A stretch of 20,059 nt of DNA from a virus (IMGVR_UViG_2734482785_000006:1-20059), one strand, 5' to 3'; shown: positions 4,067-17,324, counted from the first letter of the stretch. The notes: a model not told the origin generated them from the letters alone. Program-made: numbers and translations.

Positions 4067-4345
4067 TTAGGGAAACTGGCGTCTTGCGTGGATCACGTTT
4101 ACTACTTCAACGCTTGATGTTGTTACGCGGTATAGAATTATATAGTTAGGGTGGGCCACAATCTCACGCAAGCCAGGCACCCTGTCGCTTGGTGGGTATA
4201 AATACGGGTGTTCGGATAACGGCAGCACACAACCCCTTAATCGCTGCCATAAGCGTTCTGCCGCATCTATGTCGAAACGAGCAATATAACCAGTTATATC
4301 ATCCAAGTCGGTATCTGCGCTTTCAAGCCATAATACGGGTAACAT
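4067..4345 (-). CDS. parE2: ParE-family toxin (ParE2-like, 92 aa)
   Basis: ATG at 4345..4343, one nt after the antitoxin stop; product MLPVLWLESADTDLDDITGYIARFDIDAAERLWQRL...YIILYRVTTSSVEVVNVIHARRQFP has the RelE/ParE fold signature and matches recalled ParE2 of E. coli O157 prophages in size. Confidence 0.75.
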   Translation of the reverse strand: MLPVLWLESADTDLDDITGYIARFDIDAAERLWQRLRGCVLPLSEHPYLYPPSDRVPGLREIVAHPNYIILYRVTTSSVEVVNVIHARRQFP

Positions 4346-4346
4346 T

Positions 4347-4538
4347 TTACTGCTTGCTCCGTTCCTTGCGCATTTTAGCAAAGCGTTCTGCCATTCTGCG
4401 CTCAACTTCGTCATGAGGAATTGCTGGGCGCGGATCTGCAAGGCTCGTTGCTACTTTCGCACGCAGCCATTCGTTGTAACTGTTTTCTTGTTCAATGGTT
4501 TCAAACTCAGAAACCATTGGTGAAAGGGCTCTATTCAT
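4347..4538 (-). CDS. paaA2: PaaA2-like antitoxin (63 aa)
   Basis: ATG at 4538..4536 with GGAGG 7 nt upstream; product MNRALSPMVSEFETIEQENSYNEWLRAKVATSLADPRPAIPHDEVERRMAERFAKMRKERSKQ; size and position upstream of the ParE toxin fit PaaA2. Confidence 0.7.
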   Translation of the reverse strand: MNRALSPMVSEFETIEQENSYNEWLRAKVATSLADPRPAIPHDEVERRMAERFAKMRKERSKQ

Positions 4539-4558: not shown

Positions 4559-4930
4559 TCAGGCGCGGCGGCATTTTTGCGCCGCAATCCATCTCGCTAT
4601 GAGGTCTTCCATTGATTCTTTTTTCTGCTTTAACTCGCTGATTATCTGGCGTTGCTCATCCTCAGGGAAGGCTGAAAAAATCTGCAATAATTCCAGTTGA
4701 TTAGACGTTAACCCTGCATGTGGTGGAGAAACCTCCGGTTGTTCTGCGTATTCCGCATCCAGATACCCTTCCGGCATCCCGTATGTTTGCTCTATTCTTC
4801 TGGCAGCCTTTTCTCCAAACGAGGCTCTCCCACTCATTAGTTGAGATAGGTAGCTCTTCTCTTTGGGTGGCAGAGTTTTATCTTTAAACCACTCCTTGAG
4901 ACGTAAACGGCGAATTTCTTTTTTTTGCAT
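4559..4930 (-). CDS. paaR2: HTH repressor, PaaR2/DicA/CI-like (123 aa from ATG 4930; alternative GTG start at 4993)
   Basis: Product MQKKEIRRLRLKEWFKDKTLPPKEKSYLSQLMSGRASFGEKAARRIEQTYG... with C-terminal LELLQIFSAFPEDEQ motif resembling DicA-type repressors. No Shine-Dalgarno before ATG 4930 but a TTGCTT-17bp-GATAAT promoter ends 7 bp upstream, consistent with a leaderless mRNA as for lambda cI. Confidence 0.7.
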   Translation of the reverse strand: MQKKEIRRLRLKEWFKDKTLPPKEKSYLSQLMSGRASFGEKAARRIEQTYGMPEGYLDAEYAEQPEVSPPHAGLTSNQLELLQIFSAFPEDEQRQIISELKQKKESMEDLIARWIAAQKCRRA

Positions 4931-4939
4931 GTGGTAATT

Positions 4940-5020
4940 ATCTTTAGTAATCACTAAACAAGCAAATACTTGACTTAATGGTTTATTAAACACTAAACTC
5001 GCAAAAAAACACTAAACCGA
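4940..5020. promoter_or_regulatory. Divergent OR-like promoter/operator region between repressor and cro-like gene
   Basis: Three direct copies of CACTAAAC (4952..4959, 4991..4998, 5010..5017), a TTTAGT-aatc-ACTAAA palindrome (4943..4958), and a rightward TTGACT (4970..4975), 18-bp spacer, TAAACT (4994..4999) promoter; the leftward promoter for the repressor is described under that gene. Confidence 0.45.
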
Positions 5021-5027
5021 GGAAGGT

Positions 5028-5330
5028 ATGACATTAAAAGAGTTTATTAAATCATTGAGAGTTGGTGATGCTAAGAAATTCGCGGCCAGACTTGGTGTAT
5101 CGCCATCTTACTTATCGCAAATGGCGTCTGGACGAGCAGCTATATCTCCAACCCGCGCCCTTATGATCGAATCTGCGACGGAAGGCCAGGTAAGTAGGGC
5201 GGAGCTACGACCCCATGATTGGGAGCTTATTTGGCCTGAGTATGCGAGCGGCATTCGTTTGGGGCAAACACATGTAGTTCATGCTGAAGGTGATTGTAGT
5301 GCATGCTTATCTGATGGAGTTGATTCATGA
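5028..5330 (+). CDS. Cro/YdaS-like HTH DNA-binding protein (100 aa)
   Basis: ATG at 5028 with GAGGAAGG Shine-Dalgarno; product has HTH core FAARLGVSPSYLSQMASGRAAISPTRALMIESATEGQVSRAELRPHDW typical of the YdaS/Cro family; divergent from the repressor gene. Confidence 0.7.
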   Translation: MTLKEFIKSLRVGDAKKFAARLGVSPSYLSQMASGRAAISPTRALMIESATEGQVSRAELRPHDWELIWPEYASGIRLGQTHVVHAEGDCSACLSDGVDS

Positions 5331-5752
5331 AAATCAAGCATGAACACATCCGCATGGCGATGAATGCCTGGGCACATCCGGACGGCGAGAAAGTACCGGC
5401 TGCAGAGATTACCAAAGCGTATTTCGAACTGGGAATTACGTTCCCGGAACTGTATGACGACAGCCATCCGGAAGCCCTGGCACGCAATACTCAGAAAATT
5501 TTCCGCTGGGTGGAGAAAGACACCCCTGATGCGGTTAAAAAAATTCAGGCGTTGTTACCAGCTATCGAAAAAGCAATGCCACCTCTGCTGGTGGCCCGAA
5601 TGCGCAGCCATAGCTCAGCCTATTTTCGGGAACTAGTGGAGACGCGGGAACGACTGGTGAGAGACGCTGATGATTTTGTCGCAGTGGCGATCGCTGGTTT
5701 CAACCAGATGAATCGTGGTGGCCCTGCAGGAAATATTGTGGCTGTGCATTGA
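5327..5752 (+). CDS. ydaT: YdaT-like (CII-like) protein (141 aa)
   Basis: Start overlaps the previous stop (ATGA); N-terminus MKIKHEHI... matches my recollection of Rac YdaT; position after the cro-like gene. Confidence 0.6.
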   Translation: MKIKHEHIRMAMNAWAHPDGEKVPAAEITKAYFELGITFPELYDDSHPEALARNTQKIFRWVEKDTPDAVKKIQALLPAIEKAMPPLLVARMRSHSSAYFRELVETRERLVRDADDFVAVAIAGFNQMNRGGPAGNIVAVH

Positions 5753-10352: not shown

Positions 10353-10652
10353 TTATAAGAAATCGGTTTCATAACTTTGCCCACCATGATAGATACCGAC
10401 AATAAAGACTTTTCTGCTATCAACGGCAAAAGCAATAATCGTTCTGTGGCGGAAATGAGTTACCCGCATCCCCTGGCGAATATCATCGCGTTTATTGCCC
10501 CGATGCGGGAATGTAGAAAACCCATCAAGATAATCAAGAAGCGCATTGGCATAATTGTCAGCAATGACGTTCCCTGCTTTCTCCGTTATATACCTGTGCA
10601 GGTTGATTATTTGTTGTTCGGCCTCAGGAGTAATGATGACTTCATATGTCAT
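10353..10652 (-). CDS. RelE/ParE-family toxin (99 aa)
   Basis: ATG at 10652..10650; product MTYEVIITPEAEQQIINLHRYITEKAGNVIADNYANALLDYLDGFSTFPHRG...IVGIYHGGQ has the ParE/RelE pattern; directly downstream of the antitoxin gene. Confidence 0.7.
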   Translation of the reverse strand: MTYEVIITPEAEQQIINLHRYITEKAGNVIADNYANALLDYLDGFSTFPHRGNKRDDIRQGMRVTHFRHRTIIAFAVDSRKVFIVGIYHGGQSYETDFL

Positions 10653-10657
10653 GCAGA

Positions 10658-10915
10658 TTACTTCCCGGATCGAATCGCGGCGCGAACCTGTGAAATGGAG
10701 CGTCCGTTGTTTGGGTTTTCGCGGATAGAATCAAGAGAGGGGGCGGCTGAATGCGTTAACCACGCTTCGATTGCTTTATCGCGCTCATTCAGTGCGCGAA
10801 GCCCTTCACGAATGACCTCGCTTTCTGAAGCATAGGCACCGGAAGCCACACGGGCGCGCACCATGTCAGCCATTTCGTTAGTTAATGTAATGCTGAATTG
10901 TTGGGTTGTACGCAT
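10658..10915 (-). CDS. ParD-like ribbon-helix-helix antitoxin (85 aa)
   Basis: ATG at 10915..10913; product MRTTQQFSITLTNEMADMVRARVASGAYASESEVIREGLRALNERDKAIEAW... typical of ParD/RHH antitoxins. Confidence 0.65.
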   Translation of the reverse strand: MRTTQQFSITLTNEMADMVRARVASGAYASESEVIREGLRALNERDKAIEAWLTHSAAPSLDSIRENPNNGRSISQVRAAIRSGK

Positions 10916-11050
10916 GGTAAACCTCACGGAGTAGGATAGAACACCATTTGATGATAGCACGTTGCCTGTTGACGACAACAGAAATCAGAGACAATATTGC
11001 CGCACGCCAGCTTGAACAACTGGCACCTGCTGCGCCAGCAGAGAAAACCG

Positions 11051-11324: not shown

Positions 11325-12374
11325 GTGCGGGTATTACTTCGACCTGTTCTGGTACCGGAACTCGGGCTGGTGGTCCTTAAGCCAGGTCGTGAATCCATGC
11401 AGGTATTTCACAATCCTCGAGTGCTGGTGGAGCCGGAATCGAAAAGCATGTGCGGCCTGCCATCCGGAGTCGTCCCTGCCGTTCGCCAGCCGCTGGCGGA
11501 GGATAAATCATTACTGCCATTTTTCAGCGATGAGCGGGTGATTCGTGCTGCTGGCGGCGCTGGGGCACTGTCTGACTGGCTGTTGCGTCATGTCAAATCC
11601 TGCCAGTGGCCTCATGGTGACTATCATCACAGTGAAATCGTCATACATCGTTACGGTACCGGCGCGATGGTGTTGTGCTGGCACTGCGACAACCAGCTGC
11701 GTGACCAGACATCCGAATCACTCGGGCAACTTGCTCATCAAAATCTGTCAGCATGGATGATTGACGTCATACGCCATGCAATGAATGGCACGCAGGAGAG
11801 GGAGTTATCGCTGGCTGAATTATCCTGGTGGGCGGTCTGCAATCAAGTGGCGGACGCGCTTCCGGAGGCAGTATTACGTCGTTCTCTGGGGTTACGTGCG
11901 GAAAAAATCCGCTCAGTATACCGCGAAAGCGACATCGTACCGGGAGAGCAGACCGCCACCAGCATACTGAAGCAGCGCACAAAAAATATTGCGCCACCAC
12001 CTCATGCCCACCAGCAACAGAACCCACCACAGGAAAAGACGGTGGTAAACGTTGCCGTTGATCCTGAGTCTCCTGAATCTTTCATGAAGCGGCCTAAACG
12101 TCGCCGCTGGGTAAATGAGAAATACACGCGCTGGGTAAAGACACAGCCGTGTGCGTGTTGCGGTAAGCCAGCCGACGATCCCCATCACCTGATTGGTCAT
12201 GGTCAGGGCGGAATGGGAACAAAATCCCACGATATTTTCACGCTACCGCTGTGTCGGGAGCATCACAATGAACTTCATGCTGATCCGCTGGCATTTGAAG
12301 AAAAGCATGGTTCCCAGATTGATTTAATTTTTCGTTTTCTTGATCACGCCTTTGCAACCGGCGTGCTCGGGTAA
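11325..12374 (+). CDS. DUF968 family protein (YdfU-like), 349 aa
   Basis: GTG at 11325 five nt after GGAGG; C-terminal Cys/His cluster CACCGKPADDPHHLIGHGQGGMGTKSHDIFTLPLCREHHNELH and conserved position upstream of rusA. Confidence 0.65.
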   Translation: MRVLLRPVLVPELGLVVLKPGRESMQVFHNPRVLVEPESKSMCGLPSGVVPAVRQPLAEDKSLLPFFSDERVIRAAGGAGALSDWLLRHVKSCQWPHGDYHHSEIVIHRYGTGAMVLCWHCDNQLRDQTSESLGQLAHQNLSAWMIDVIRHAMNGTQERELSLAELSWWAVCNQVADALPEAVLRRSLGLRAEKIRSVYRESDIVPGEQTATSILKQRTKNIAPPPHAHQQQNPPQEKTVVNVAVDPESPESFMKRPKRRRWVNEKYTRWVKTQPCACCGKPADDPHHLIGHGQGGMGTKSHDIFTLPLCREHHNELHADPLAFEEKHGSQIDLIFRFLDHAFATGVLG

Positions 12375-12386
12375 AAGAGGTTACTG

Positions 12387-12758
12387 ATGCGTATAGAGTT
12401 TGTTTTGCCTTACCCGCCGACGGTGAACACCTACTGGCGACGTCGTGGCAGCACATATTTTGTATCAAAAGCCGGTGAGTGTTATCGCCGTGATGTGGCG
12501 CTCATTGTTCGCCAGCAGCGGCTGAAATTAAATCTGTCCGGAAGGCTGGCAATAAAAATTACTGCAGAGCCACCGGATAAACGCCGTCGTGACCTGGACA
12601 ATATTCTGAAAGCACCACTGGATGCGCTGACGCATGCGGGACTGCTTATCGACGACGAGCAGTTTGATGAAATTAATATTGTGCGCGGTCAGCTCGTTCC
12701 TGGTGGTCGGCTGGGCGTGAAGATTTACGAAATTACAGGTGATAACGATGGCGCGTGA
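12387..12758 (+). CDS. rusA: Holliday junction resolvase RusA
   Basis: Product [21 protein letters not shown]...[29 protein letters not shown] matches recalled RusA motifs. Confidence 0.8.
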
Positions 12759-13134
12759 TATTCAGCAGGTTATGGAGCGGTGGGGAGCATGGGCTGCAAA
12801 CAATCACGAAGATGTGTCATGGGCGTCAATAGCTGCTGGTTTTAAAGGATTAATCCCGCCGAAAGTGAAATCACGCCCTCAGTGTTCTGATGATGATGCA
12901 ATGATAATTTGTGGCTGTATGGCCCGGTTGAACAAGAAAAATCAGGATTTGCACGATTTGTTGGTGGATTATTACGTAGGTGGAATGACTTTTATGGGGC
13001 TGGCACGAAAGCATGGGTGTTCGGATACCTGTATTGGCAAGCGCCTGCAGAAAGCGGAAGGGGTTATTGATGGCATGTTGATGATGCTTGATATCCGACT
13101 GGAGATGGACAGATACGTAGAACGAATCATGTAG
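12748..13134 (+). CDS. quuD: Late-gene antiterminator Q (QuuD-like), 128 aa
   Basis: ATG at 12748 seven nt after AGGTGA, overlapping the rusA stop; product [35 protein letters not shown]... closely resembles recalled DLP12 QuuD. Confidence 0.7.
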
Positions 13135-13138
13135 GAGC

Positions 13139-13169
13139 TTGACCAGACACATTGTCCGGGGCTATATTC
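13139..13169 (+). promoter_or_regulatory. PR'-like late promoter (qut region expected here)
   Basis: TTGACC (13139..13144), 17-bp spacer, CTATAT/TATATT, immediately after the Q stop; followed by a CGCCAG-caaaat-CTGGCG hairpin (13176..13193). Confidence 0.4.
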
Positions 13170-13230
13170 CTCACGCGCCAGCAAAATCTGGCGTCGGGAT
13201 TAGGAACCCCGGATAGAGACCGCGACAGAT

Positions 13231-13255
13231 ACACGCCGCGAGCGTGTTTTTTATT
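13231..13255 (+). terminator. tR'-like rho-independent terminator
   Basis: ACACGC-cgcga-GCGTGT stem-loop followed by TTTTTTATT, about 90 nt downstream of the late promoter. Confidence 0.55.
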
Positions 13256-13415
13256 GTCGTATGCACGCGCACATCTGAATTATGGTGGGGCGTATGGGGG
13301 AGCTGAAAGGCTCGCCGGTTGGTTTCCCGGTAGTTCCTAACCCTGTACGTCTCACCACCCGATGATTAGGAACCTGACGGTGGTGATAGTTTAGAAACCA
13401 CTAGAGGGCGTCATT

Positions 13416-13979
13416 ATGACAACTCAAATCTCTGTTGAAACTCTCTCCCCGATCACCCATAACCAGATTCCTGTAATTACCACTGAACTTTTGGCGCAGC
13501 TTTATGGCACCGAAATTCTGAATATCCAGGTTAACTTCACCAGAAACAAAGAGCGTTTTGTCGCAGGGAAGCACTTTTTTAAAGCAGCGGGTGAGGAATT
13601 AAAAAAATTGCGACTTACTTTAAGTAAGTCACAAAATCCCATCTCTCCCAAAACCCGCTCCCTCATTCTCTGGACAGAACGAGGCGCAGCCCGTCACGCC
13701 AAAATGCTCGAGACCGATCAGGCGTGGGATGTGTTCGAAAAACTGGAAGACTGTTATTTCAGCCAGAAACAGCCACCAGCAGCACAAAACTCCCCCACCG
13801 AAAATGATGGATGCGCATTACTGATCCACTTCGATAAACACGGTCAGGTCGACTTCACGGAAAAAGTACCCGCCGATGCGATGGTATGCACTCTGGAACG
13901 GTTTAAATTTTATCTGGAACAACGCGGCTGGATCGTTGCCCGTAAAGAGCAGCTGGTGGAACGACTGATGCGGCTTTAA
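13416..13979 (+). CDS. ORF6N/Rha-like antirepressor-type regulatory protein (187 aa)
   Basis: ATG at 13416 after GAGGG; N-terminal region PVITTELLAQLYGTEILNIQVNFTRNKERFVAGKHFFKAAGEELKKL resembles the ORF6N/Rha domain; family call is from memory. Confidence 0.5.
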   Translation: MTTQISVETLSPITHNQIPVITTELLAQLYGTEILNIQVNFTRNKERFVAGKHFFKAAGEELKKLRLTLSKSQNPISPKTRSLILWTERGAARHAKMLETDQAWDVFEKLEDCYFSQKQPPAAQNSPTENDGCALLIHFDKHGQVDFTEKVPADAMVCTLERFKFYLEQRGWIVARKEQLVERLMRL

Positions 13980-14054
13980 AAATTTTCCCCGAACGCTTTA
14001 CGATCGTAAAAAGTTGAATATCCTGTTAAGAGTGGTTACTACGCCAAACAGCTT

Positions 14055-14083
14055 AAACCCGCCACTGAGCGGGTTTTTTTTAT
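14055..14083 (+). terminator. Rho-independent terminator
   Basis: AAACCCGC-cactga-GCGGGTTT stem-loop followed by TTTTTTAT. Confidence 0.6.
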
Positions 14084-14203
14084 GCCTGAAAAACGGTACA
14101 GGACGTTAAACGCGCTGGTGGTTGCGAATACTGGTCTTTCGGCTTGTATTTTTGTAAATCGATATATACTTATCTTGTGACCAGTAATGTCAGGGCAATT
14201 GAT

Positions 14204-14947
14204 ATGAATGAAGCTTGTTCTGTTGTTTTTGTTCATTCCCCGTTTGTTGTGCTCTTTGAAGGAAAAGAGCTCTCTCTGGAAAGTGGTAGTGCACTTCTTG
14301 TCAGGGGGGGAGCTGGATCGTTATTGCCCTTTTCGGAATGTTTTCGGCGAATAAGTCTCAGTGAATCGACAATTATCCGTTACCTGTTGTGTGGAGACGA
14401 AAAACAGGATGTAGTTTTAGTCCGGCAAATACCACGATATCTTTGCGTGAGTTTTCCCAAGGCAGAATTGATGGGCATCCTGATTGATTATCTTTGTGAG
14501 GAAAAGATTCATACGGACAATTTAGCGGAAATGCTTTCCTTTTCGTGTCTGGCGTTTTTCTCATCAGAGAAAATGTTTTCGTCGTTTCTGACCGCGTGTA
14601 TTGGCAATATTAGTGACAGGCTTAGTGCATTGTTTCGTACGGACATTGCAGCAAACTGGACTCTGAGAGATGTGTCTTCGCGGTTATGTATCAGTGAAAG
14701 TTTGTTAAAAAAAAGACTGAAAGAAGAAGGCACCTGTTTCAGTGAGTTGTTGCTTACAGAGAGAATGAGAATGGCAGCAATGCTGTTGAATCAATCTCGT
14801 TGCGCCATCAACAGAATCGCTGCTCAGTGTGGCTATAATTTTACATCTTATTTTATCAGCGTATTCAGGAGTTATTTTGGTGTTACACCGGCAGGTTACA
14901 GGATGGCTGCATTCAATGAGATGAGTTTAAGTGTTACTCAAGAATAA
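14204..14947 (+). CDS. AraC-family transcriptional regulator (247 aa; track start at 14144 is an alternative)
   Basis: C-terminal AraC-type HTH WTLRDVSSRLCISESLLKKRLKEEGTCFSELLLTERMRMAAMLLNQSRCAINRIAAQCGYNFTSYFISVFRSYFGVTPAGYR; gene is AT-rich relative to flanks. Confidence 0.75.
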   Translation: MNEACSVVFVHSPFVVLFEGKELSLESGSALLVRGGAGSLLPFSECFRRISLSESTIIRYLLCGDEKQDVVLVRQIPRYLCVSFPKAELMGILIDYLCEEKIHTDNLAEMLSFSCLAFFSSEKMFSSFLTACIGNISDRLSALFRTDIAANWTLRDVSSRLCISESLLKKRLKEEGTCFSELLLTERMRMAAMLLNQSRCAINRIAAQCGYNFTSYFISVFRSYFGVTPAGYRMAAFNEMSLSVTQE

Positions 14948-14972
14948 TTGAATTTTGCACTCATTGAAAACA

Positions 14973-14997
14973 GGCTCGCTGCGGCGGGCCTTTTTTA
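14973..14997 (+). terminator. Rho-independent terminator
   Basis: GGCTCGC-tgcg-GCGGGCC stem (one G-U pair) followed by TTTTTTAT directly after the AraC-family gene stop. Confidence 0.5.
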
Positions 14998-15086
14998 TAT
15001 CCGCGCCACGTCCGGCGCACATCACATCAGATAACACCACACAAAAGGTATCTGCGGGTGCCTTTGACGGGGTGTTGTTTTTTTAC

Positions 15087-15110
15087 GGGCCGACAGTGGC
15101 CCTTTTTATT
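15087..15110 (+). terminator. Terminator-like hairpin immediately upstream of the lysis cassette
   Basis: GGGCC-gacagt-GGCCC followed by TTTTTATTT; lies 4 nt upstream of the AGGAG ribosome-binding site of the first lysis gene. Confidence 0.4.
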
Positions 15111-15125
15111 TACAGGAGAAAAAGT

Positions 15126-15518
15126 ATGTCTGAACCCTTATCCGGTTCCGGCACGGCTGCGGCGCTCGGCGGGGCGACGGTATTCGGGCTGTTTACCGGA
15201 ACGGATTTCGGGATTGTGTTTGGTGCATTCGCGGGGGCGTTGTTTGTGGCAACGATGCCACAGACGCTTTCAGCCTGGCGTGTGGCGGCGCATTTTCTGG
15301 TGTCGTTCATTATCGGCGTGCTGGGCGCAGAGGTTCTGGCATCCTGGCTGGTAAAGCATACAGGGTTTGACGGTGCACCTGTTGACGCATTGTGTGCAGT
15401 ACTGGTGTCAGTGGTGTCGGTGAAGATTCTGTCATTCATCCACCAGCAGGATATTGCATCACTGGTGTCCGGCCTGTTCTCCCGTCTGCGTGGCGGAGGA
15501 GGCGGCAATGTTAAGTAA
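15126..15518 (+). CDS. Putative holin-like membrane protein (130 aa)
   Basis: ATG at 15126 eight nt after AGGAG; several predicted transmembrane stretches (TVFGLFTGTDFGIVFGAFAGALFVA, FLVSFIIGVLGAEVLASWLV, ALCAVLVSVVSVKILSFI) and a charged C-terminus; first gene of the lysis block. Function inferred from position only. Confidence 0.4.
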   Translation: MSEPLSGSGTAAALGGATVFGLFTGTDFGIVFGAFAGALFVATMPQTLSAWRVAAHFLVSFIIGVLGAEVLASWLVKHTGFDGAPVDALCAVLVSVVSVKILSFIHQQDIASLVSGLFSRLRGGGGGNVK

Positions 15519-15783
15519 CCTTCCCGGATTGCTGAATGTGGCGTTATGCACGGTTATCGTGCTGACGCTCTTTTTTTATCGTCGCCGTGACTCCAGACAC
15601 AAACCGCTGCTGTCATGGCTGGCCTGGCTGCTGATGCTGCTTTATGGCTTTGCTCCACTCAGCTATCTGTGTGGTCGCCCGTTAGCAACGGGCTGGCTGG
15701 AAGTGTTTTTTAATCTGCTGTTCTGCGTGCTGGTGATACGCGCACGCGGGAACGTCATAAAAATCTTTCCATTGTTGAGGTGA
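15508..15783 (+). CDS. Membrane protein (91 aa), holin/antiholin-like by position
   Basis: ATG at 15508 after GGAGGAGG, overlapping the previous gene; hydrophobic segments LLNVALCTVIVLTLFFY and LSWLAWLLMLLYGFAPL; basic C-terminus. Confidence 0.4.
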   Translation: MLSNLPGLLNVALCTVIVLTLFFYRRRDSRHKPLLSWLAWLLMLLYGFAPLSYLCGRPLATGWLEVFFNLLFCVLVIRARGNVIKIFPLLR

Positions 15784-15785
15784 AT

Positions 15786-16163
15786 ATGCCGGGTAAATTC
15801 AGATTCAGCCGTCGCAGTGAAAAAAATCTGGAGGGCGTCAAACCACAGCTGGTTGCTGTCGTTCGCCGTGCGCTGGAGCTGACGGAGGTTGATTTCGGTA
15901 TTACGGAAGGCCTGCGCAGTAAGTATCGCCAGAAACAGCTGGTCGCGGAAGGGAAAAGCCAGACCATGAACAGCCGCCACCTGACCGGTGATGCGGTGGA
16001 TGTTGTGGCCTACATTGGCAGCCAGGTGTCATGGGACTGGCCTCTGTACGAGAAAATCGCGCAGGCATTTAAGCAGGCTGCCGCAGAGCTGGGGACTGCC
16101 ATCGAATGGGGCGGGGACTGGAAAACACTGAAAGACGGGCCTCACTTTCAGTTGAAACGCTGA
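15786..16163 (+). CDS. Endolysin, peptidase M15 (L-alanyl-D-glutamate peptidase / VanY-like) family, 125 aa
   Basis: ATG at 15786 after GAGG; motifs SRHLTGDAVDV and DWKTLKDGPHFQL typical of M15 zinc peptidase endolysins. Confidence 0.7.
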   Translation: MPGKFRFSRRSEKNLEGVKPQLVAVVRRALELTEVDFGITEGLRSKYRQKQLVAEGKSQTMNSRHLTGDAVDVVAYIGSQVSWDWPLYEKIAQAFKQAAAELGTAIEWGGDWKTLKDGPHFQLKR

Positions 16164-16177
16164 TAACCAGGTGTGTT

Positions 16178-16360
16178 ATGAGCAGAAAACACTGGACACA
16201 CAGAATGCCGCGAACGGCGGCGAAATGGGCATTGGTAGCGATACTGGTGCCTTTTTTTCTGGTGGGATGCGTCAGTCTGGATAAGGCGCGCCAGCTTTTC
16301 GATACAGCTTCTCAGGTCTGTGAAATTGTCGACGGTGTTCGGCAGTGTCTGCAGAACTGA
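16178..16360 (+). CDS. Small lipoprotein (60 aa), possible outer-membrane spanin-like lysis component
   Basis: ATG at 16178; signal peptide with lipobox AKWALVAILVPFFLVGC; short Cys-containing mature part; location right after the endolysin. Confidence 0.4.
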   Translation: MSRKHWTHRMPRTAAKWALVAILVPFFLVGCVSLDKARQLFDTASQVCEIVDGVRQCLQN

Positions 16361-16533
16361 TCGCCTGTAAGAGCAGAATATTTTGCTGAAAAATGAAGGA
16401 TGCGCCAGCGTCCTGAAAGCATGAAATTCTGCTGTGTGTGTCAATTTGTCTTATACATTCTGAATATTGCCGAATCAGGATGAACTTTGATCAGCAGCCC
16501 GGGCGGCAAGGGGCATTTTTATCCGGAGGGGAT

Positions 16534-16973: not shown

Positions 16974-17324
16974 ATGCCATCACGAATCCCCCGCGCATGT
17001 CGTAAGCGAGGCTGCGCAGGCACAACAACAGACAGTTCGGGCTACTGCGATAAACATCGGGGTGAAGGCTGGGTGCAGCACCAGCGCGGACTAAGCCGCC
17101 ACCAGCGTGGCTATGGCTCAAAATGGACGGTGATTCGAGCCCGTATTCTGAAGCGCGATAAAGGTCTGTGTCAGTTGTGTCTGCGTGTCGGTGTGGTGCG
17201 CGAGGCGAAAACTGTGGACCACATCATTCCGAAAGCTCATGGTGGCACGGATGCAGACAGTAACCTGCAGAGTCTGTGCTGGCCCTGCCATAAAGCAAAA
17301 ACTGCGCGCGAACGTATCAACTGA
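16974..17324 (+). CDS. HNH endonuclease associated with the terminase module (116 aa)
   Basis: HNH signature CQLCLRVG...VDHIIPKAHGGTDADSNLQSLCWPCHKAK; position immediately upstream of the small terminase subunit, as in HK97-like packaging modules. Confidence 0.7.
   Translation: MPSRIPRACRKRGCAGTTTDSSGYCDKHRGEGWVQHQRGLSRHQRGYGSKWTVIRARILKRDKGLCQLCLRVGVVREAKTVDHIIPKAHGGTDADSNLQSLCWPCHKAKTARERIN

Follow-up and report, generated by a model that had tools for sequence, protein, structure and literature searches.

The interval between the antiterminator gene Q and the lysis genes of an Escherichia coli prophage (positions 13135 to 15110 of the 20,059-nt window IMGVR_UViG_2734482785_000006:1-20059) is a mosaic of three units, rather than a single block of cargo. 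These are an antirepressor module of the IsrK/C4/Ant type, a probable late promoter-terminator pair (PR'-tR'), and a moron coding for an AraC-family regulator. The explanation we favor, with a probability of about 0.7, is that the module was inserted between Q and PR', that PR'-tR' is native, and that the moron sits in the slot used for Shiga toxin (stx) genes in Stx phages. A sequence-only reading of the same DNA had described a cargo island punctuated by terminators, with a PR'/tR'-like start directly behind Q; its open reading frames (ORFs) for Q, an ORF6N-domain protein, and the AraC-family protein agree with Pfam matches, and its AraC gene holds as cargo, but its ORF6N gene belongs to a phage antirepressor module predicted to be controlled by a C4-type RNA, and its PR'/tR' label was most likely placed on the wrong pair.

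The late promoter is located by comparison with Stx phages. The window Q is 81% identical to the VT1-Sakai/H-19B-type Q over residues 2 to 125, diverging past 'MDRYVER', and positions 13995 to 14084 are identical at 71 of 90 nucleotides (79%) to the annotated VT1-Sakai segment comprising PR', the Q-utilization site (qut), and tR'. By this alignment, Q-dependent late transcription most likely starts near 14031, and the terminator at 14055, previously taken as that of the ORF6N gene, is instead part of the homologue of the annotated Stx-phage PR'/qut/tR' (13997-14084); the pair following Q is the isrK/c4-a1b1/C4 leader according to Rfam. A perfect 12-bp palindrome, TTACGATCGTAA (13998-14009), overlaps the -35 of the PR' homologue and is conserved in Stx-phage PR' regions. 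The Q21 binding element has been described as an '8-bp direct repeat' in a structural preprint.

Among 80 IMG/VR loci encoding relatives of the window Q, the module is present in 39 (all 38 with at least 94% Q identity and one at 84%) and absent from 41. The largest module-less group, with a Stx-phage-type Q, has TTTACGATCGTAAAAATCTGCATATCATGATAAGAGTGGTTAC...AACCCGCCGATGCGCGGGTTTTTTT directly after Q, and the post-Q stretch of this group, from TTTACGATCGTAAAAA to tR', occurs in 277 phage records, mostly of Stx-converting phages and including H-19B and VT1-Sakai. The 16-mer TTTACGATCGTAAAAA is found once in the window, and lies ∼20 nt past the stop codon of the antirepressor gene (ant) in most of the sister loci listed. 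Because the PR' stretch directly follows Q in module-less relatives and lies past ant here, the module looks like an insertion that separates Q from PR' by 0.86 kb.

The same pattern is seen with an unrelated antiterminator. The window Q is not related to AntQ of Salmonella phage Gifsy-1, and of 80 loci with AntQ relatives (L183-L262), 47 lack the isrK/C4/ant module; all 47 have DNA that is 85 to 96% identical to the isrJ-containing stretch located after anrP in Gifsy-1 (L009, 33380-33520, minus strand), and this isrJ-like DNA starts ∼13 to 37 nt past Q in the AntQ loci listed. With the isrJ region directly after Q in module-less loci, the insertion pattern holds for phages with a Q82-type antiterminator too, and hints that in Gifsy-1 the native late promoter may have IsrJ as its terminated leader RNA, rather than IsrK. 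No statement of such a role for IsrJ was found in the literature searched.

The module itself begins with a promoter 5 nt past the Q stop codon, which is the sole 10/12 sigma-70 match in the region covered by the promoter and terminator consensus scan (12000-16500). Its -35 TTGAC and the -10 region CTATATT are kept in aligned modules from other genomic contexts, with a variable spacer, and the promoter and leader are also found far upstream of Q, in the nin region, in Stx phages, and after unrelated antiterminators. The isrK/c4-a1b1/C4 trio likewise precedes AnrP in Gifsy-1 and the ant genes of VT2-Sakai, CP-1639, PhiR5_2, and pPE4. At an E value of ≤1, Rfam returned no isrJ and no family besides isrK, c4-a1b1, and C4 over 12900-15300; weak Trp-leader, rsmX, and STnc100 matches were discarded, as they merely reflect terminators. 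The C4 RNA folds with -42.3 kcal/mol (z -3.6), placing a' in an 8-nt hairpin loop and b' in a 9-nt bulge, both unpaired, with two hairpins held inside a long closing stem. The b1 and b2 sites, upstream and downstream of C4, are the same sequence, UUAGGAAC, of which b' (GUUCCUAA) is the exact reverse complement, and a' (UUGGUUUC) pairs with both a1 and a2. The loop of the first leader hairpin, GCAAAAUC (13181-13188), is invariant in all aligned modules and its stem co-varies (GCGCCAG/CUGGCGU, GCAACCG/CGGUUGU, GCAGCCG/CGGCUGC); no pairing was found between this loop and the variable C4 loops.

These pairing sites co-vary across relatives. Eighty viral loci encoding an ORF6N protein, together with six further loci, yield 43 unique module sequences, and all 43 have the order b1 core, exactly complementary b', and b2 core, with seven core types in perfect co-variation. 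There are eight types of a', each with matching a1 and a2, and 13 combinations of a and b types. The predicted loop-target duplexes have energies of -15.7 ± 1.3 kcal/mol for cognate pairs versus -10.4 ± 2.6 kcal/mol where both sites differ. The a2 site is 15 to 22 nt before the ATG in correctly parsed modules (the automatic search misplaced a2 for one a' class). The co-variation and the pattern of pairing point to occlusion of the ant ribosome-binding site by C4, with the a1 and b1 sites of the leader competing for C4.

A conserved role for an upstream ORF like orf45 of Gifsy-1 is ruled out by the same set. The published arrangement was reproduced in Gifsy-1, with 45 codons and a stop overlapping the anrP ATG, whereas its counterpart in the window is 27 codons long, with the stop 53 nt short of the ATG (13283-13366), and those in the other 42 variants have 14 to 55 codons and stops that fall anywhere between 95 nt ahead of the ant ATG and 34 nt past it. 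The overlapping stop-start is thus confined to Gifsy-1 among 44 unique module variants, and this upstream ORF appears to be lineage specific; with orf45 not conserved and the RNA pairing kept, it is the pairing that stands out as the core these loci have in common.

Over 186 of 187 aa, the ORF6N protein shares 56% identity with Gifsy-1 AnrP (STM2616), with which it is colinear and equal in length, and it has a full-length match to phrog_2379, 'anti-repressor' (E value, 3e-90). It had been labeled ORF6N/Rha-like, of which the ORF6N part stands (PF10543), and the Rha part does not, as Pfam at an E value of ≤0.01 returned ORF6N only. A PDB search with the protein gave no match. By homology and context, its gene is the predicted antirepressor of a C4-controlled phage module, not cargo. 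In Gifsy-1, AnrP expression induces the prophage and raises antQ expression, the isrK promoter drives transcription of an anrP mRNA that is untranslated, IsrK supplied in trans lifts translation more than 100-fold, and an ∼80-nt species is processed from the read-through transcript (PMC4825925). A candidate repressor in the window is a 144-aa minus-strand regulator (4559-4993; phrog_5736, with no Pfam match), which is the likely target of the antirepressor; it is located in a Rac-like immunity region (4559-5752) and is followed by plus-strand YdaS-like and YdaT-like genes. The window and IMG/VR contig IMGVR_UViG_2630968766_000008 have an intact ORF6N gene, which is cut short or split by IS66 in complete E. 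coli genomes with the Q-module-AraC layout (L001, 5274-5759; L004, 1219-4106).

The AraC gene is by position the cargo in the stx slot. The sequence-only reading had named this as the position of stx in Stx phages, and the positional claim holds: the gene is the first past a PR'-tR' homologous to that of H-19B and VT1-Sakai, and a sibling prophage has stx2kAB there. This Stx2k prophage (L011) shares with the window the dicB/relBE/ydaST/DnaT/DUF968/RusA backbone and the lysis cassette, and carries, between Q and that cassette, two hypothetical genes, an AraC-like gene, three tRNA genes, stx2kAB, iraM, a second holin, and ydfR. The window's AraC gene is absent from the Stx2k prophage and from pPE4 in spite of their having the same holin, and homology to pPE4 resumes at ∼15031, which places the moron at about 14085 to 15030; conservation of the holin-proximal hairpin extends to pPE4. 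The gene is AT rich, as had been noted, with a GC content of 0.417 compared to 0.47 to 0.575 for neighboring genes and 0.49 for the window, and GC is ∼0.41 across 14000-14900. Presence and absence among phages with the same holin, the atypical composition, and the -16.8 kcal/mol terminator behind the gene are all features of a moron in the Hendrix/Juhala sense.

The moron is found behind different antiterminators. From ∼14053 to the holin, the DNA is 97 to 99% identical (Megablast) in prophages in which the AraC unit follows one of three antiterminators, the window-type Q, a 273-aa protein, or a DUF1133 protein; the 273-aa Q at the equivalent position in L178 is lambda-type (PF03589). In L002 and L003, the tR' terminator likewise stands behind late promoters that belong to other Q types; in L002 it is ∼55 nt past a TTGATT-17-TAAATT promoter abutting Q, which makes it a tR' there. 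Some 175 other complete E. coli genomes carry the terminator and the ∼70 nt after it (14050-14146) but not the AraC gene, and this leader segment is thus shared with other cargo.

The regulator belongs to the clade of YdeO, GadW, GadX, AppY, and PatE. It matches HTH_18 (51.6 bits versus a cut-off of 33.6) and HTH_AraC (49.9 versus 26.6, in two stretches), as well as the structure of the GadX DNA-binding domain (3mkl; E value, 2e-22). The NCBIfam YdeO model (NF007407) matches over its full length with 146.9 bits against a cut-off of 348, and the GadX model (NF007432) with 98.1 bits against a cut-off of 500, and by these scores the protein is in the YdeO/GadX clade but is an orthologue of neither. 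A homology search, which the sequence-only reading had put forward as a check, gives prophage-borne relatives at 30 to 39% identity, namely, ECs_0287 of the Sakai Sp1 prophage (39%; PatE-like, a presumed rather than verified PatE homologue) and AppY (30%), and other identities are 40% for GadX (C-terminal domain only), 37% for YdeO, and 36% for both GadW and the Stx2k-phage regulator. The suggestion of an acid-resistance or virulence regulon fits this clade (YdeO, GadW, GadX, and PatE-like proteins at 30 to 40% identity) as a family resemblance only. Characterized members of the clade activate gadE/hdeAB acid resistance and repress secretion encoded by the enterocyte effacement locus (LEE) (PMC10877973).

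In the collections searched, the AraC gene looks to be limited to some E. coli. Its product matches the representative of a 241-member E. coli cluster at 100% identity, the AraC unit (at least 80% coverage) is present in 65 of 5,426 complete E. coli genomes (1.2%), mostly bovine, farm, Shiga toxin-producing, or enterotoxigenic isolates, and no relative was found with the protein in species-representative genomes. No mention of the protein's accessions was found in the literature searched. Among more distant homologues, a lambda-type Q is directly followed by the one at 82% identity and likewise by the one at 42%, whereas those at 37% and 36% are located farther into the Q-lysis gap. In Lambda_2G7a, a 37% homologue is just before the holin, and in mEp332 another is past the tail genes.

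The terminators of the interval are more numerous than expected, with 13 terminator-like sites in 12000-16500 compared to 5.1 ± 2.3 in shuffled sequences. The four plus-strand hairpins listed in Table 1 were recovered by both the scan and folding, and bear out the intrinsic terminators claimed for the island, including one just before the first lysis gene; those at 14055, 14972, and 15087 are also kept in related prophages. The holin-proximal hairpin is directly upstream of the same holin in L001 to L003, L007, and the Stx2k prophage, and the window's lysis cassette is also found in L001 to L004 and L011.

Table 1. Coordinates of predicted features between Q and the lysis genes, with supporting evidence
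Feature	Position	Strand	Evidence
Antiterminator Q, Q21/Q933W family	12739-13134	+	PF06530, E 2.5e-52; phrog_79; RefSeq-style start 12751
Sigma-70 promoter TTGACC-18-TATATT	13139-13168	+	10/12 consensus match
c4-a1b1 motif	13162-13215	+	RF03163, 47.8 bits, barely above gathering cut-off of 46.7
IsrK-type leader RNA	13175-13252	+	Rfam isrK (RF01394), 69.1 bits; gathering cut-off 50
Leader hairpin 1 loop	13181-13188	+	Fold
b1	13200-13207	+	Loop of leader hairpin 2
a1 GAGACCG	13216-13222	+	Pairs with a'
Weak leader terminator and U-run	13231-13247	+	-8.1 kcal/mol, z -2.3
C4-type antisense RNA	13278-13362	+	RF01695, 65.7 bits, gathering cut-off 45; E 5e-11; full model 1-87
a'	13319-13326	+	C4 hairpin loop
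b'	13333-13340	+	C4 single-stranded bulge
b2	13366-13373	+	5' untranslated region of ant
a2 GAAACCA	13394-13400	+	5' untranslated region of ant, 3 nt before Shine-Dalgarno
Shine-Dalgarno AGAGGG of ant	13403-13408	+	
ORF6N-domain predicted antirepressor, AnrP homologue, 187 aa	13416-13979	+	PF10543, E 2.2e-20, 73.1 bits; cut-off 27.8
Probable Q-dependent late promoter PR' TTTACG-16-TATCCT	13997-14024	+	Homology to VT1-Sakai 'putative late promoter'
Late leader with qut-like AAGAGTGGTTAC at 14028-14039	14025-14084	+	Aligned to VT1-Sakai 'Q-utilization'
tR' terminator and U-run	14055-14076	+	-12.0 kcal/mol, z -3.0; aligned to VT1-Sakai 'terminator for pR' transcript'
AraC upstream region, AT rich	14085-14203	+	Conserved along with the gene (L002, L003)
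AraC/XylS-family regulator, YdeO/GadW/GadX/AppY/PatE clade, 247 aa	14204-14947	+	HTH_18, HTH_AraC; phrog_1450
Strong intrinsic terminator after AraC gene	14972-14991	+	-16.8 kcal/mol, z -4.9
Lysis-cassette leader	15031-15125	+	Conserved
Holin-proximal terminator	15087-15102	+	-10.8 kcal/mol, z -2.8
Phage_holin_8	15126-15518	+	Pfam
3TM holin	15508-15783	+	Pfam
M15 endolysin	15780-16163	+	Pfam

These arrangements suggest how the interval may be controlled, although the steps beyond the firing of both promoters are extrapolated from homologous systems; what the sequences themselves show is homology, membership in RNA families, co-variation, the order of genes, and the limits of the modules. The constitutive promoter behind Q would make a short IsrK-type leader, usually halted at the weak terminator, and transcripts that read through would carry C4, whose a' and b' would pair with a2 and b2 beside the ant Shine-Dalgarno and keep the ORF6N gene untranslated in the lysogen. 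The a1 and b1 sites of the leader would compete for C4, which may be the route whereby excess IsrK turns AnrP on in Gifsy-1. More leader relative to C4 would release ant, and the antirepressor would then inactivate the repressor, leading to induction and production of Q. Both promoters would fire in the lysogen, the second yielding a short leader that ends at tR'; once Q loads at PR' (13997-14084), polymerase would read through tR', the AraC gene, and two further terminators into the lysis and head genes. The AraC regulator would thus be made strongly on induction through Q, and in lysogens only via leakage at tR' or from a weak promoter of its own, with the strong terminator behind it and the holin-proximal terminator shielding the lysis genes from Q-independent transcription of the moron.

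Several observations weigh against parts of this explanation. The -10 of the window PR' (TATCCT) is weaker by one match than the Stx-phage TATCAT, and three of the eight annotated qut bases differ (five are kept), so that dependence on Q at the 13997 site is not certain. Published activation in Gifsy-1 goes via translation of the 45-codon upstream ORF and cannot simply be transferred to a locus where this is not conserved. No convincing sigma-70 promoter for the AraC gene was found in a relaxed scan of 14085-14203, the candidates reaching 8/12 at best and having nonoptimal spacers of 15 or 19 nt, such as TTGTAT-15-TATACT at 14144-14170, and the regulator is just 30 to 40% identical to any characterized relative, from which its targets cannot be inferred. 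The layout first proposed, in which 13139-13168 is PR', 13231-13247 is tR', and the ORF6N and AraC genes are late-operon cargo with terminators of their own, draws on the promoter at 13139 being the best sigma-70 match and abutting Q, on the isrK promoter-leader unit following the Q gene in Gifsy-1 too, and on the description of IsrK as the product of a promoter regulated by antitermination (PMC7547250). We nonetheless regard it as unlikely, since the occurrence of this promoter and leader upstream of Q in Stx phages and behind unrelated antiterminators indicates that the unit is not matched to any one Q; moreover, with Q proteins 81% identical, the Stx-phage PR'/qut/tR' aligns to 13995-14084 and not to 13139-13252, and in module-less relatives of Gifsy-1 it is the post-anrP isrJ region that follows Q.

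The ORF6N protein could be a DNA-binding regulator of the KilA-N/Rha type acting directly on promoters, instead of an antirepressor that binds the repressor. Only its N-terminal ORF6N domain is recognized, the C-terminal half is without a solved-structure match, and the antirepressor activity of AnrP is itself deduced from induction and antQ mRNA, not from binding assays; but a regulator of this type is improbable given the end-to-end alignment with a PHROG family labeled 'anti-repressor', the lack of a Rha Pfam match, C4-type control as for ant in P1 and P7, and the existence of Stx-phage versions in which this N-terminal domain is fused to a C terminus resembling P22 Ant (PMC3064807). The AraC protein could control the phage itself, for instance its late genes or the timing of lysis, and not host genes, for which its linkage to the same holin-cassette leader in ∼65 complete genomes, behind three antiterminators, can be cited. 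Phages with the same holin do without it, however, its AT-rich composition and flanking terminators are moron-like, and its characterized relatives (YdeO, GadW, GadX, AppY, PatE, and PsrA/B) all act on host acid-stress or related regulons, making a phage-directed role quite improbable. That the gene is a silent passenger, for example, silenced by H-NS and without function in this host, would be in keeping with its poor promoter, its rarity, and the decay of the adjoining ant gene in most complete-genome copies. This, too, seems rather doubtful, as the ORF is intact and 98 to 100% conserved across prophages with different backbones, and homologues down to 42% identity keep the post-Q position, which argues for selection.

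Both the IsrK/C4/Ant module and the AraC regulator belong to known kinds, although the module has its own pairing specificity and the regulator is uncharacterized. The likeness to the isrK-orf45(STnc1160)-anrP-isrJ locus of Gifsy-1 in Salmonella Typhimurium (Hershko-Shalev et al. 2016, PMC4825925) extends over the order of Q, promoter, IsrK leader and terminator, ∼80-nt C4 RNA, 187-aa ORF6N protein, short promoter-terminator unit, cargo, and lysis genes, and the published IsrK mutations G28A and G31A fall in b1 by our own reading of the sequence. Gifsy-1 differs in having a Q82-type Q, unrelated to the Q21/Q933W-type Q of the window, b sites of UUGGCGU instead of UUAGGAAC, an orf45 coupled to anrP that is absent here, and tRNA-Arg and gogA as cargo in place of an AraC regulator. 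A tRNA scan of the window found no tRNA genes, unlike in Stx phages or Gifsy-1.

In the immI loci of P1 and P7, the c4 antisense RNA controls ant through a and b sites, and C4 of P1 is released by RNase P processing. The module resembles immI in that one transcript has upstream sites, an antisense RNA in which two stretches are exposed, and downstream counterparts at the ribosome-binding site of the gene through which the antirepressor is made, and in that compensating changes set the specificity types apart, as they do P1 and P7; P4 CI RNA/seqA/seqC and P1/P7 c4 are in the same Rfam clan, CL00128. It differs in the lack of an icd-like gene, in the location of a2 directly beside the ant Shine-Dalgarno, in a leader that ends at an intrinsic terminator and gives a separate short RNA, and in its antirepressor, an ORF6N protein and not P1 Ant, in a lambdoid phage. 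H-19B, 933W, and VT1-Sakai resemble the window in Q and PR'-qut-tR' and in having a nonessential AT-rich gene first after tR' and before lysis, but their cargo is a toxin rather than a transcription factor. Their antirepressor module is in the nin region and not between Q and PR', and inspection by eye showed no match in the window to the Stx leader's second, StxS-containing part (no formal test was made). The regulator shares with PatE, PsrA, and PsrB of enterohemorrhagic E. coli, with AppY of prophage DLP12, and with the chromosomal YdeO, GadW, and GadX its clade, a length of ∼245 to 250 aa, a 'CSV' start motif at the N terminus, and a double helix-turn-helix at the C terminus; prophage-borne AraC regulators are likewise AT rich, but ECs_0287 and AppY are located past tail-fiber genes and PsrA and PsrB by effector loci, whereas the window gene is directly behind PR'-tR'.

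Elsewhere in the window, a DicF small RNA is predicted at 2568-2619 on the minus strand (Rfam, 76.7 bits), and the corresponding region of the sibling prophage is annotated with an early-left operon of the dicB/ydfC type. There are two minus-strand genes for ParE/RelE-type toxins, one near the immunity region (4067-4441) and one in the nin region (10353-10978), the latter adjoining a ParD-type antitoxin gene. An HNH endonuclease gene (16974-17324) has a small terminase gene of the P27 family directly downstream, which is the usual arrangement in HK97-like cos phages.

A wider pattern can be put forward only tentatively, in which the YdeO/GadW-like AraC clade has repeatedly settled in the Q-lysis gap of lambdoid phages that differ in antiterminator type and its members, as Q-dependent late products in the manner of Shiga toxin, may rewire host acid-stress or virulence regulons with induction; they would be produced in the cells undergoing induction and, by leakage at tR', in small amounts in lysogens. 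Linked to this are the proposals that the isrK-C4-ant cassette is an insertion aimed at the Q-PR' junction across Q families that are not related, and that IsrJ is the PR' leader of Gifsy-1. Co-variation of all three sites throughout the family favors C4 antisense control as what IsrK-type loci conserve at their core. The late-control map of this prophage is corrected to one with an antirepressor module between Q and the likely late promoter, and with the AraC gene in the Shiga toxin slot by nucleotide-level homology. If the regulator acts on GAD/hdeAB or LEE-type regulons, mainly bovine and farm E. coli would carry a prophage-borne stress or virulence regulator whose dose is tied to prophage induction.

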